A stretch of DNA of 56,361 nucleotides, counting the filler, from Dugesia japonica (lineage: Eukaryota), in assembly GCA_001938525.1 (NCBI GenBank). It is 5 parts of 5 records of this genome, joined end to end, with 100 filler letters (N's around TTAATTAATTAA, not from the genome) between each part and the next. Parts side by side here need not be neighbours in the genome. Positions count along the whole stretch, not along the records: positions 1 to 11,443 come from MQRL01630205.1; 4 more parts are not named here. One strand, given 5' to 3'. The position numbers and the translations under genes are program-made. This document shows positions 3,085 to 11,226 of this stretch, one piece after another. The number at the start of each line of letters is the position of its first letter. Position 1 is the first letter of the stretch. The notes under the pieces are model-generated. The model was not told the origin of the DNA, made no database searches, and worked only from the letters and a program-made list of their open reading frames with translations.

Positions 3085-6000
3085 ATGACTTCCCCAATAT
3101 TTAAATGTTACCATTGTAATAAAATATTAGGAAATAATGCGGGTCTAAAAAGTCATTTATCATCTAGAACATGTTTTGAATCCAAACCATTTAAATGTAA
3201 GAAATGTAAAAGGGGATTTAAAACAAAATATCATTTAAAATCTCATTTAAAATTGTCAAAATGTAAAACTGTAATTTTACCATTATTCTGTGAAATTTGT
3301 GATTTAAAATTTAAAAAACAAAATAACGCAAAACTACATTTTGAGTCTAAAAAACACGAAAAAAATGTTAAAAAATTTAATTTCGAAGAATTACCGGGTG
3401 AAGAAGGAATTGATTACTCACCAGAAATTAGAGACATATTTAGAGCGCATAAATATAAACATTTTGAAATAACTTATTTTTTAAAAAGTAAAGTGGAAAT
3501 GTTTTATGATGTAGAAAAATATTGTTTTTTAGAAATTACTGATATTTTCTATTTTTTAGATGAAATAAGAGAAATTATTATTAATTATTTTAAATGTGTT
3601 AAACAAGCAAAAGTAAGTATGATTGTAACATCTAAATATTCAAATGAAATTAATAATATATACACAGAAAGAGATTTCAATTCATATTCAAACAATAAAA
3701 TAATTACAATTAAAAGTGAAATTAATACCCATGTCAAAGAAATATTCTATGAATTAAATAAATATATTGAAGATGAAGATCGAGAAGGATCTGGTTGGTC
3801 ANTGATGAATATTACCAGTTTCACATTATATCTTTCTAAATATCAAGCAAAAGCTGGAGCTACATATAAAAAATTACCATTTAAAATAAAAGGTGTAATT
3901 AACATAGAAAATAAAGATAATAAATGTTTTCTATATTCAATTCTCGCACATAAATATCCAGTTGAACATCCAACACGTGTAAAAAATTACAGTAAACATC
4001 TCTCAGAATTAAAATATGAAGATTTCACATTTCCAATGAAAATAATTGATATTCCTAAATTTGAAAAATTAAATGATTATAAAATAAATGTTTTCGGTGT
4101 CAATGATCAAAAGAAACTTGAGCCTTTACATATTTCGCATCACATAACAAAACCAGATCCAGAAGAAAATAAATGTAACTTGTTAATATATAAAGATCAT
4201 TATATCCTATGTCGAGATTTATCTATATTTTTCACAAGAAACAGAAATAAAAATTATCCATGTCTACGATGCATGAATTGCTATTCCTCTGAAGAAATCC
4301 TATTAAAACATCAAGAAGCTTGCATTAAACAAAAACCAAATAACATTATTTTTGATTATAAAGAATATTATTCATTTAATAAATTTTANNNNNNNNNNNN
4401 NNNNNNNNNNNNNNNNNNNNNNNNNNNNNNNNNNNNNNTTTGAAGCATATACAAATATAATAACTAAAAAACAAAAAGCAATATCTTTAGGTGTTTATCT
4501 TCATAGTGAACACCAAAACCTTTTAAAAAGTGAATATTATCAATTTACAGGTGAAAATATTTATAATGATTTCTTTGAGTTTTTAGAAGAAACTAGTGAA
4601 AAAATAAATGATATAAAAGAAAATAAATTAATAGAAAAATACACAGGAACATATCCGAGATATAACAATGAAAATTGTTATTATTGTAACAGAAAAATCA
4701 CCAAAGACCCAGTTTTAGATCATAATCATTTCACAGGTGAACCCCGAGGTTACGCACATGAAAAATGTAATTTGTATGACTTTTCTGTAAAAAATCTATT
4801 TATTCCATTTTATTTTCACAATGCATCTGGCTATGATAANNNNNNNNNNNNNNNNNNNNNNNNNNNNNNNNNNNNNNNNNNNNNNNNNNGGCTATGATAA
4901 CCATTTATTTTTTAAAGAATTAATAACAAAATTTACAGGAAAAGTAAAAAAGATAATACCACATTCATCAGATAATTATATTTCATTTTCATTTGAAAAT
5001 ATTAGATTCTTAGATTCAGCTAGACTTCTCCCATTTACATCTATTGAAGTTATGGGTAATCTACTAACATCTTCAGGTAATTATCCAATTCTAAAATCTT
5101 TTAACCTAAAACCTAAAAAAATCTCATTTCCATATGAGTATGTAAAAGGAAACAATCCACAAGAAGTTGAAACATTATTAAAATGTAAGACCCATAAAGG
5201 GGAAAAGAAGATACCAGAGAAAAAAGATTTCTTTAATACTCTAACACAAAAAGAAATATCTGATCAAGATTATCAATTATTTCTAGATGACTTCACTAAC
5301 TTTGAAAATCTTTGGGATTACATGTTACATTACATGAAATTAGATGTTCTAATTTTAACAGATTTCCTTGAAAACTTTAGAAATTCATGTTTAAATAATA
5401 TTCTTAAACTAGATCCATGTTATTCATATTCAGCACCAGGATATTCATGGGAAACTGGAATGTTAAATGCAAATGTTAAACTTAAATATGCTAAATCAAA
5501 TACTTATGATTTATTCTTATTAATTGAATCTGGAATTCGAGGTGGTTTTTCAGGTGTCCTCGGCGAACGTCAAGTCTTCAGTCATAATAAAAATCAAACA
5601 ACCAGAAAATTAAATAAATCACAATTTGAAGATTTCATGGAAGTGTTTTATAAACATAAATTTATTCCAGATGAATATCTTGATCAACTAATGGGAGAAA
5701 CATTTATAAAATATATTGATGAAAATTCTTTATACGCAAGTTGTATGACAAGACCACTTCCAACAGGTGAATTCAGCGAATGTAATGAGCTGGAGTTAAT
5801 TTATGAACAAGCAACAGATAAAATTAATTACATTTACGAAGTTGATCTTGAATATCCAAAAGAAATCCATGATATCACAAAATATTTTCCATTAGCACCA
5901 GAAAGAATAAATATTACAGAAGACATGCTTTCTAATTATCAATTAAGTTTTAACAAGAAAATATCAAAAGATAATATTAAACTTACATTGAATCAATTTA

Positions 6001-7031
6001 ACAAGAAAAATTACGTATGTCTAGGTTCAACACTAGATCTTTATTTAAAACTTGGAATGAAACTAAGAACAATTCACAAGAAAATTAAAATGAACACATC
6101 TACATGGTTTAAAGATTATGTTTACAAATTAATAGCACTAAGAAAAGAATCTAAAAAAATNAAAGATGTATTCGGAGATTACATTTACAAATTAATGTTA
6201 AATGCTTTCTATGGCAAAACACTAGAAAATATTCGCAATCGATGCAACATTGAAATTGTTGATACCGACAAAGCATACCAAAGATTTGCAGCTAAACCAA
6301 CATTTAAATCAAGTAAGATCTTCTGTTTAAATGATACAAATGAAGCTAATGTTGCAGCAATGCAAATGATAAAAGGAAAACTAAAATATAACAAGTTTCC
6401 ATATATAGGATTCACAATTCTAGAACATGCAAAACAAGTAATGTATAATTTTATTTATATCCAAATGCAACCTTTGATTGGTAATAATTATAAAATTCAT
6501 TATACAGATACGGATTGTATCTTTGTTGAAATTAAAAACAGAGATAATCTAACTAAATTAGAAAGTCTACTTGGTGACAATTTATTTCAAATGAAAGATG
6601 AAAAACCCAACAATGAAATAACACAAGGTAATTTTATAAAATCAAAATCTTATGGTTATCAATATCAAGAAAAACAAGATAAAATTGATTTTGAATACAG
6701 AAATAAAGGTGTTAAGAAAAATAATAAATTATTAATGTCAGATTTTGATTCTGTATTAAAAGATCGCAAGAAAATAATCTATGGAACAAATTACAATTTA
6801 AAATCTGAATCTCATGAAATTGAATTAATAAAACAATATAAAATAACACTAATGGCATTTGATGATAAAAGAATAATAGAAGATAATGCCACAAGAACAT
6901 GGCCACATGGAAATCAATATCTTTGTAACTGTGGACTCTGGCATTTAAGATTAGAGAAGATAAATAAATGCACTTGTTGCTCCTTCGGCTCCTTCGGCCT
7001 TTATGGCCTTTATGGCTCGCGTTTAGTTTAA
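3085..7031 (+). CDS. polB: Protein-primed family B DNA polymerase, copy R: 3 zinc fingers, terminal-protein-like region, vOTU-like domain, exonuclease with inserted endonuclease-VII-like Zn domain, and polymerase
   Basis: Three ORF-track pieces broken only at N gaps; copy L reads through both gaps. Motifs: DNKC..HY (OTU-like), FEA (ExoI), FHNASGYD (ExoII), YMKLD (ExoIII), CYYC..DHNHFTG..RG.AH..CN, IDENSLY (A), KLMLNAFYGK (B), YTDTD (C), FDDKR. Confidence 0.95.
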
Positions 7032-7079
7032 AAATCTAACATGCAACATTCTTCCTTTATAAAATAGCACAGCCAAATA

Positions 7080-10012: not shown

Positions 10013-10054
10013 AAAAAAACGTCATGCATGTCGTTTTATCAAGATTAAAAAGGA
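10013..10054 (+). repeat. 42-bp inverted repeat, left copy
   Basis: AAAAAAACGTCATGCATGTCGTTTTATCAAGATTAAAAAGGA; exact reverse complement of 11217-11258. Confidence 0.95.
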
Positions 10055-10098
10055 CTTGTGATTTTATAAAAATAAAACTAGAAAAATAAAACTAGAAA

Positions 10099-11226
10099 AT
10101 GAAATGTATGATTAAAAAAAATAGTCTTAAAATGGAAGAGGTTTTATCTATTTTAAACAAAATTATTAAATCTTGTGATAAATTAGAAGAATTAGATAAT
10201 AAAATTACTAATGAAAATTATTATTTAACATTTTATGAAAAGATTTGTGAAATTAAGAAAAAAGTTGATTTTGAAAGTGATATTAATGTAAAATTTATTA
10301 ATAAAGATAAAAATATTACATTAGAATATAAAAAAAAACTAGCTAACGAATGGTTGTATAAATCTAAAGAAGAACAAGAAAATTCTATTCCATTTGTAAA
10401 AGGATCTGTAAATTATAAATATATTATGGAAGAAAGAAAGAAAATGAATAAATTTAATGAATTTCAAAAGAAAGCAATTGAAATATTAGAAAGTAAAAAT
10501 AAACCTAAAATTGTAACTAAAATTGAAACTAAAGCCACAAAGGCCGAAGGACCTGTAACTAAAATTGTAACTAAAATTGTAACTAAACCTGAAATATTAG
10601 AAACTAAAGCAGTAACTAATATTGTAAATATCGAAGAATCTAAAAATAAACTCTCTTATAAAGAAATTGAGGATATAATAATTAAACCATCTGATTTAAC
10701 TCGTTATGAAAAATCAGTAATTAAAGAAGGACGAAGAACTAAAAAAATATTAAATAAAGAATCAAAACCAGATTTTAAATCTAAATTTTTAAAATCTTTA
10801 ACTAATAAACCTTTACCAATATCTATTATAAAACAATATAGTACATGTAAAACTTTAAGTATTACTGAAGTATCTGAATATAATTATTTAACATTAAATA
10901 AAAAAAATATTACAGAAGAAATTAAATATTGGGGGAGTGTAACACAAACATGTAATCAAGTTAGTTTATTAAGTTACACGAAATTAGGAAAATTACTTTC
11001 AATAATGAAAAAAGATTTTAATAAGACTCCTAATTTAGTTAATTATTTACATGGAGAAGAGATTAATTATTCAAAAAGACATATTCAAAGGCTAATTAAA
11101 TTTAGTAAAATAGCTGATGAATATCCAAAAATATTAACTACTACTTTTTCATTTTATAAACTCTCACTTCATTTTAGAGAAATTAAAGAAATAATTAATG
11201 AAGAAATTAAAGAATTTCCTTTTTAA
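10099..11226 (+). CDS. Hypothetical Lys-rich protein with VTKI repeats and a C-terminal HTH-like (DUF3102-like) region
   Basis: Intact 375-aa ORF (alternative start 10132). C-terminal LGKLLSIMKK...INYSKRHIQRLIKFSKIADEYPKI. The stop codon lies inside the right inverted repeat. Confidence 0.75.
   Translation: MKCMIKKNSLKMEEVLSILNKIIKSCDKLEELDNKITNENYYLTFYEKICEIKKKVDFESDINVKFINKDKNITLEYKKKLANEWLYKSKEEQENSIPFVKGSVNYKYIMEERKKMNKFNEFQKKAIEILESKNKPKIVTKIETKATKAEGPVTKIVTKIVTKPEILETKAVTNIVNIEESKNKLSYKEIEDIIIKPSDLTRYEKSVIKEGRRTKKILNKESKPDFKSKFLKSLTNKPLPISIIKQYSTCKTLSITEVSEYNYLTLNKKNITEEIKYWGSVTQTCNQVSLLSYTKLGKLLSIMKKDFNKTPNLVNYLHGEEINYSKRHIQRLIKFSKIADEYPKILTTTFSFYKLSLHFREIKEIINEEIKEFPF

Follow-up and report, generated by a model that had tools for sequence, protein, structure and literature searches.

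The window examined here, a stretch of 56,361 nucleotides (nt) joined from five records of the Dugesia japonica assembly GCA_001938525.1, begins with a contig (MQRL01630205.1, positions 1–11443, closed by an N spacer at 11444) that represents a Polinton/adintovirus-like element, while the remainder is AT-rich host DNA with remains of long terminal repeat (LTR) retrotransposons. Two features of Polintons can be deduced from this contig, a protein-primed family B DNA polymerase (pPolB; gene polB at 3085–7031) and a single jelly-roll penton (minor capsid protein, 9171–9967). Encoded on the same plus strand are a Polinton virion accessory gene with a Gly-Gly-hydrophobic helix (7080–7784), an open reading frame (ORF) with a C-terminal, putatively pX-like Polinton domain (7793–9109), and an orphan ORF of 375 aa (10099–11226). 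To the left, the 5' part of a second, diverged polB copy lies in inverted orientation (3–2366, minus strand, cut by the window start; 85–90% identity), the inverted copy as a whole spanning 1–2730. Dispersed over these genes and the spaces between them is a family of GC-rich modules of 9–24 nt with the cores CCAYRMRGG and GCCGAAGGA, joined as 9-, 15- and 18-nt units, which we are inclined to regard as ultrashort repeats invading the element.

The 24-mer module A is present within an insertion of polB (5186–5209) and identically inside a 14-residue insertion of the penton (9712–9735), at both sites in the KTHKGEK frame; a partial copy (8921–8940, with the last 16 nt of the 24-mer recurring at 8925–8940) lies just upstream of the pX-like domain. 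Module B, an 18-mer, is found in the C-terminal tail of the accessory gene (7701–7718, AIKAEG frame), and a variant with one mismatch (10534–10551, ATKAEG frame) interrupts a 12-nt tandem array in the orphan ORF, all of these being on the plus strand. On the minus strand, a run of 9-nt units (6972–7020) consists of two GCCATAAAG, two GCCGAAGGA and then one GCAACAAG unit; it contains the 18-mer inverted at 6990–7007, and, as proposed beforehand, its inverted units encode the SFGSFGLYGLYG tail of polB. A cluster of variant modules on the plus strand (7403–7525, with members at 7409, 7437, 7455, 7481, 7499 and 7513) is located in a linker of the accessory gene. To the family could be added CCACACGGG at 7409 and CCACGAGGG at 7499, and GCAACAAG-type modules stand at 7437, 7455 and, on the minus strand, 6980. 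Directly behind the penton stop follow three non-coding plus-strand copies (9968–10012), in which AACCATAAAG occurs three times at 9971–10010 with a 15-nt period. Modules are thus doubled in tandem at 6981–7016 and at 9968–10012. Every coordinate of the preliminary description proved correct on recheck; the variant listed there at about 305–331, however, is not an independent site but the orthologous position in the left polB copy, which holds a module A variant with the core CCACAAGGG in a KNHKGEK frame (309–329, minus strand). In addition, a GC-rich cluster on the plus strand with CCGTAGG and inverted GCGAAGC spans the stop of the pX-like ORF (9097–9118). This island and another at 8203–8225 are unlike the main core, and joints of public contigs end or begin at both.

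The 9-mer CCATAAAGG ranks best in the 8.7-kb element, with 8 copies against 0.03–0.15 expected under Markov models of orders 0–4 (about 0.07), followed by GCCGAAGGA with 4 copies against 0.004 expected. Both are absent from the 44.8 kb of host DNA within the window that served, in place of the whole genome, as baseline for the enrichment. Not one of 100 whole-window shuffles reached 8 copies of CCATAAAGG, the maximum being 3. By a score for dispersed 9-mers, the element came first among 100 sequences (97 related loci, the element, its left arm and a host slice), and CCATAAAGG is missing from 89 of the related loci, occurring once in seven and twice in one. Moreover, no comparable module family is seen in L058, L082, L083, L085 and L086, all of them related loci that share the virion genes of the element. 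Exact searches with a 22-mer gave no match in viral and metagenome contigs, nor did an 18-mer in viral contigs; the 66 single matches of a degenerate 19-mer were not accompanied by local enrichment and were dismissed as chance. Hence, with 8 copies against about 0.07 expected and none in the host part, the CCATAAAGG/GCCGAAGGA family is real and lies far past chance, and the refuting case named in the preliminary description, a motif no more frequent than expected, does not apply. Words with a GNA triloop were also counted, with six in the element and none in the host part.

The module family is a feature of the DNA. Within the element, the degenerate core CCAYRMRGG is read four times in one forward frame, three times in another and twice on the reverse strand, with two further copies being intergenic, and it does not occur in the host part; the same module DNA is read as PIK, AIK or LYG or is left untranslated. 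In an element whose GC content at third codon positions is 14%, the KTHKGEK string employs four codons with frequencies of 4–9%, giving a product of 1.8e-5 per copy. When the coding sequences were redrawn synonymously 1000 times, CCATAAAGG reached at most 4 copies, two of them the fixed intergenic ones, versus 8 observed, and GCCGAAGGA at most 1 versus 4 observed. It is the use of two forward frames and the reverse strand, the intergenic copies and the rare codons from which the DNA-level nature of the module follows.

Across five unrelated genes, the modules occupy loops, tails and spacers, where homologous proteins lack the segment or vary. The polB site is covered by 107 homologues; measured from anchor to anchor, the copies of the window have 29 residues, the two nearest relatives 23 and 97 others 16–17, corresponding to an insertion of 6 to 13 residues compared to 99 of the 103 homologues measured (four of which carry a longer unrelated insert, while another four could not be measured). 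Past the last conserved motif, the polB tail extends over 56 residues; in 76 homologues, the median length is 23 and none exceeds 40. None of 13 penton homologues has the 14-residue module segment, and the few additional residues of three distant ones at this place are unrelated to it. A second penton insertion at 9362–9437 is free of the motif, and many contigs show other letters there. An alignment of the accessory gene with 17 of its 56 homologues places the 7403–7525 cluster in a linker of variable length and the 7701 module beyond the last conserved block. In polB, penton and accessory gene, the module peptides are accordingly insertions relative to homologues and not conserved features shared with distant ones, the latter being the outcome that the preliminary description named as a refutation. 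The assignment of these insertions to loops is based on alignments, as the penton insertion was modelled with a predicted local distance difference test score (pLDDT) of 58–59 and the polB model, at a mean pLDDT of 49.8, was unusable.

Variation between copies of the element was deduced from public sequencing data. Fractions of 0.39–0.53 of the sampled words are present in seven public runs of three studies; no RNA data set was listed among them, which has no bearing on expression. Contigs aligned from four runs numbered 22,835, 23,628, 22,531 and 3,316, with the runs X1 to X3 contributing 22,531–23,628 each and all identity bands represented; therefore, the element family is large and diverse. 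The description of joints is based on the 15 that were listed of 189 in total, together with 12 of the 251 rows of in-between letters, the listed sides measuring 20–33 nt; summed contig depth cannot rank the parts, and dips at modules (for example, about 800–1100 at 5185 versus bin means of 16,000–18,000) were left unused. Among the joints listed, the one from 7701 to 7748 (two contigs from X1, one from X3) lacks the module plus 28 neighbouring bases with the frame kept. Joint 5205 to 8933 (X3) most plausibly represents a complete module A ahead of the pX-like domain, at the position of the partial copy in the window, and joint 7471 to 8936 (X1 and X2) places a GCAACAAG-type module at this same site. 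By joint 9969 to 7509 (X2), the 7509 module is brought behind the penton, in a His-Lys-Gly frame after a new ATG. In X1 to X3, joint 6967 to 7079 replaces the module-bearing polB tail (6968–7078), and joint 9097 to 11266 begins at the GC cluster and skips penton and orphan ORF. Taken together, the public contigs provide moderate evidence for an empty 7701 allele and for the same modules at other sites. Within the window, the module of the left polB copy matches the 7494 site at 16 of 18 positions and its own orthologue at only 13 of 18, while the right polB module agrees with the penton copy at 24 of 24. Between left and right polB, 7 of 9 codons differ at 5184–5210 compared to 46 of 199 elsewhere (post hoc P 0.001).

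The reading we favour, though with little more than even confidence, is that the modules are gene-less, lineage-specific GC-rich units of 9–24 nt that have spread by ectopic copying in a high-copy Polinton/adintovirus-like element and are kept where they are tolerated. An existing module would serve as the source from which further sites are seeded and older modules overwritten, either through template switching by the strand-displacing pPolB during protein-primed replication or through gene conversion among the many genomic copies, and could then expand by slippage. Purifying selection would retain only frame-preserving copies in loops, tails and spacers, and for this reason the modules may look as if written into genes. 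Of the alternatives offered in the preliminary description, namely a cis signal tolerated as in-frame insertions or a tiny self-propagating repeat, the DNA-level family tolerated in frame has held up, and the self-propagating repeat is the better supported of the two by the empty allele, the relocated modules and the match of 16 versus 13 of 18 positions.

Several observations weigh against spread by ectopic copying. No mobilising mechanism was observed; a target duplication common to the two cleanest sites, 7701 and 10534, was not found (AAG flanking module A on both sides being ambiguous), and folding of 11 of 12 module stretches was no better than that of shuffles (z +1.0 to -1.1; one stretch at z -2.3), with stems of 2–3 bp. 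A transposase- or hairpin-driven element is consequently not indicated, and a hairpin reading was rejected. The joints are short-sided and of a kind that often stems from repeats, which is how they are read here, with deletions between modules as an alternative, and the empty 7701 allele is also without the 28 neighbouring bases. Left-right divergence of polB is nearly as high in two other patches (5283–5304 and 5340–5355), which makes block replacement at 5184–5210 only modestly supported. Both polB copies retain module and HKGEK peptide, for which selection could account as well, and, given the peptide, 54 of 1000 redraws produced full identity of the two 21-nt stretches via common codons. 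This identity is therefore insufficient by itself, and it is the rare codons together with the remaining frames that decide. Finally, five of the eight exact CCATAAAGG copies lie 73–126 nt upstream of a start codon, two of them inverted.

The last point leads to the reading that we would place next, well below an even chance, in which the modules are promoter, enhancer or other words bound by the polB zinc fingers, the orphan ORF product or a host factor, recruited at gene junctions and, as the genome is compact, inside upstream genes. Three of six clusters precede the start codons at 7080, 7793 and 10099 by 73–126 nt, and a GC cluster is found about 55–75 nt ahead of the penton start. The core has the shape of a CC-N5-GG dyad, found 12 times in the element versus 13 times in the fivefold larger host DNA; a distant Polinton (L002) shows unrelated GC-rich modules directly before start codons, and zinc-finger helices and modules both differ between the left and right copies. 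Promoter motifs before genes of polinton-like viruses (PLV) have been described (10.1101/2022.07.28.501842). However, the orientation is mixed, inverted before 7080 and forward before 7793 and 10099, the copies at 5192, 9718 and 10535 are distant from starts, three of the eight exact CCATAAAGG copies being 280–1888 nt away from the next one, and none precedes the polB start. Besides, separate TATAAAA words adjoin the starts, and public contigs show the empty 7701 allele and the replaced 6968–7078 stretch. The earlier suggestion of a cis signal may hold: the position of five copies speaks for it, orientation and the three remote ones against it. Even the proximity to starts is not decisive, since insertions, too, are best tolerated at gene junctions. 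Ectopic copying and a binding word are not mutually exclusive.

A more speculative extension, which we would entertain with considerable reserve, is that the modules are crossover points, a word bound by protein or prone to nicking which would both propagate itself and allow gene ends and entire cassettes to be exchanged between copies. Pointing in this direction are the joint from the GC cluster at 9098 to 11266 in three runs, a cassette with 42-bp inverted repeats immediately behind the final module, the different modules that other copies have at equivalent sites and a polymerase with its own zinc fingers and an endonuclease VII-like domain.

It is improbable, in our estimate, that the modules are copies of a terminal origin or packaging repeat captured into genes by template switching and possibly still bound by an origin or packaging protein. 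GCCAYAAA is indeed found four times in the left subterminal repeat (2556–2618, minus strand), four times in the right coding region and only twice in 44.8 kb of host DNA, and coding regions of coronaviruses are reported to have captured terminal sequence (10.1101/2022.03.07.483258). Yet merely 8 nt are in common, the terminal copies are without the closing GG, and the right arm, to which the module-bearing genes belong, has AAAATG-n-CATTTT dyads instead, none of which occurs in the genes. We give still less credit to a peptide signal KxHKGEK (a protease, modification or DNA-binding site) common to polB and penton, with the DNA identity as by-product: HKGEK is kept in both polB copies through four synonymous changes and a His-x-Gly frame recurs six times, but HKG[EDK]K is found in none of the 107 polB homologues and, given the several readings of the same DNA and the rare codons, this explanation is already largely refuted. 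Least credible is an assembly chimera of a collapsed high-copy repeat, for although the draft contig has N gaps and no public contig among those listed spans the stretch, the sampled words recur in seven runs of three studies as given above, the modules keep the frame of genes that remain open, at the corresponding site of the inverted polB copy a separate variant is present and contig pieces over 7418–7567 and 10492–10688 match without differences.

With regard to the genes themselves, polB is assigned by PF03175 (E 1e-20) and N-terminal zinc fingers (E down to 5e-10), with an endonuclease VII-like insert detected in the left copy (Pfam PF02945, E 9.5e-5) and assembly gaps at 4389–4438 and 4840–4889. 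At E ≤ 1e-20, 333 homologues were found, 120 of which were listed, while a scan of viral contigs with the single polB protein gave no relatives. The two polB copies (window 1–5515) differ mostly synonymously, with patchy divergence and zinc-finger helices unlike each other. They meet head to head in a junction (2444–2966) with a perfect inverted repeat of about 46 bp (2688–2733 and 2746–2791) and subterminal tandem repeats that are unlike on its left and right sides; a single end of the element is visible, fused head to head with a second copy. The accessory gene has 56 relatives at E ≤ 0.001, adjoining the penton in L058, L082, L083 and L085, and presumably resembles the membrane-active 'cupiennin' class of adintovirus genes (PMC8502044). 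For the pX-like ORF, the C-terminal part matches proteins of L085 and L020 (E 3e-5 and 8.5e-5; 32% over 47 aa), the Atlas matches being weak only. The penton (assembly gaps at 9251–9300 and 9823–9886) is listed with a start at 9125, which is out of frame; homology to other pentons sets in at 9171, upstream of an assembly gap. Its model (pLDDT 75.9) retrieved giant-virus minor capsid proteins and a MELD-virus penton with Foldseek (E 2e-6 to 9e-4) and gave a middling score against the mavirus penton (Z 5.4, rmsd 9.1, 171 aligned), while a sequence search of the PDB with the penton profile had no matches.

The orphan ORF belongs to no Pfam family, has Atlas matches below 0.9 and no relatives at E ≤ 0.01 among 7998 candidates. 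It lies between the arms of a perfect 42-bp inverted repeat, the left one (10013–10054, plus strand) starting directly after the third module copy and the right one (11217–11258, minus strand) overlapping the ORF stop; the whole stretch of 10013–11258 looks like an exchangeable or invertible cassette. A further ORF end on the minus strand (11290–11443) is cut by the contig end. Among the ORFs of 1–11443, in a contig stopping mid-ORF, neither rve integrase, hexon, packaging ATPase nor adenain was found. In the host part, fragmented genes of LTR retrotransposons (protease, reverse transcriptase, RNase H and integrase) are located at 16280–18535, 45100–46743 and 53276–55446.

Repeated words were also noticed in other loci. 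The distant Polinton L002 (4790–9010) has its own GC-rich family directly upstream of several starts, once inverted, and inside two ORFs; an exact search of viral contigs with its module had no match. In L089 (1635–4295), a 16-nt word around GCAAAGCG has two copies ahead of the major capsid gene, a third in an intergenic stretch and a fourth within an ORF. An account of such modules in Polintons was not found in searches, mostly of listings, of an open-access library, and supplements of papers may hold remarks. Polintons/Mavericks and adintoviruses share with the present element pPolB, penton, pX-domain and membrane-active accessory genes, whereas dispersed repeat modules are not mentioned in the accessible part of their description (PMC8502044).

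If invasive repeats are at work here, the element would be of value since the way in which ultrashort repeats of this kind move is still open, although mitochondria and bacteria are known to contain them. With so many divergent copies present in a single sequenced eukaryote, gains, losses and overwriting could be scored site by site with long reads, and candidate machinery (pPolB, zinc fingers and nuclease domain) is encoded next to the modules. The modules might also provide a route by which polymerase and capsid protein gain an identical new loop; should they turn out to act as binding sites, a first handle on gene regulation or packaging in Polintons would be at hand.

Among known systems, the GC clusters of yeast mitochondria (GC42; PMC4478555) are gene-less GC-rich units of about 42 nt with an AG/ACT target duplication and an unresolved mechanism, which merge, shuffle and are exchanged by recombination, as the modules would also do. 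Common to both are gene-less GC-rich units dispersed in AT-rich DNA with presence and absence between relatives, both of which were found for the modules, in contrast to a common target duplication and a stable stem-loop. The modules differ in having only 9–24 nt, no AG/ACT duplication and a dyad of merely 2–3 bp, in residing in a nuclear virus-like element and in being mostly translated. No reverse transcriptase is encoded in the sequenced part of the element. The promoter motifs of PLV and virophages (10.1101/2022.07.28.501842) are likewise short words repeated upstream of several genes, but are AT-rich and oriented, unlike the GC-rich modules, which occur in both orientations and in several cases deep inside genes. 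Rickettsia palindromic elements (PMC10969869), palindromes of about 150 bp coding for a conserved peptide, are similar as in-frame insertions in unrelated protein genes that stay open, whereas the modules are tenfold shorter, use three frames and are not strongly palindromic. Closest in length is MUSE1 of Podospora mitochondrial DNA (cited in PMC7218506 and PMC2670323), an ultrashort invasive word of 11 bp with more than 100 copies; here, by comparison, the replicon is a Polinton with a dozen copies per element and several joined unit types. The modules would thus be a variant of ultrashort invasive repeats, a kind known from mitochondria and bacteria, for which a Polinton replicon is, as far as found, a new setting.

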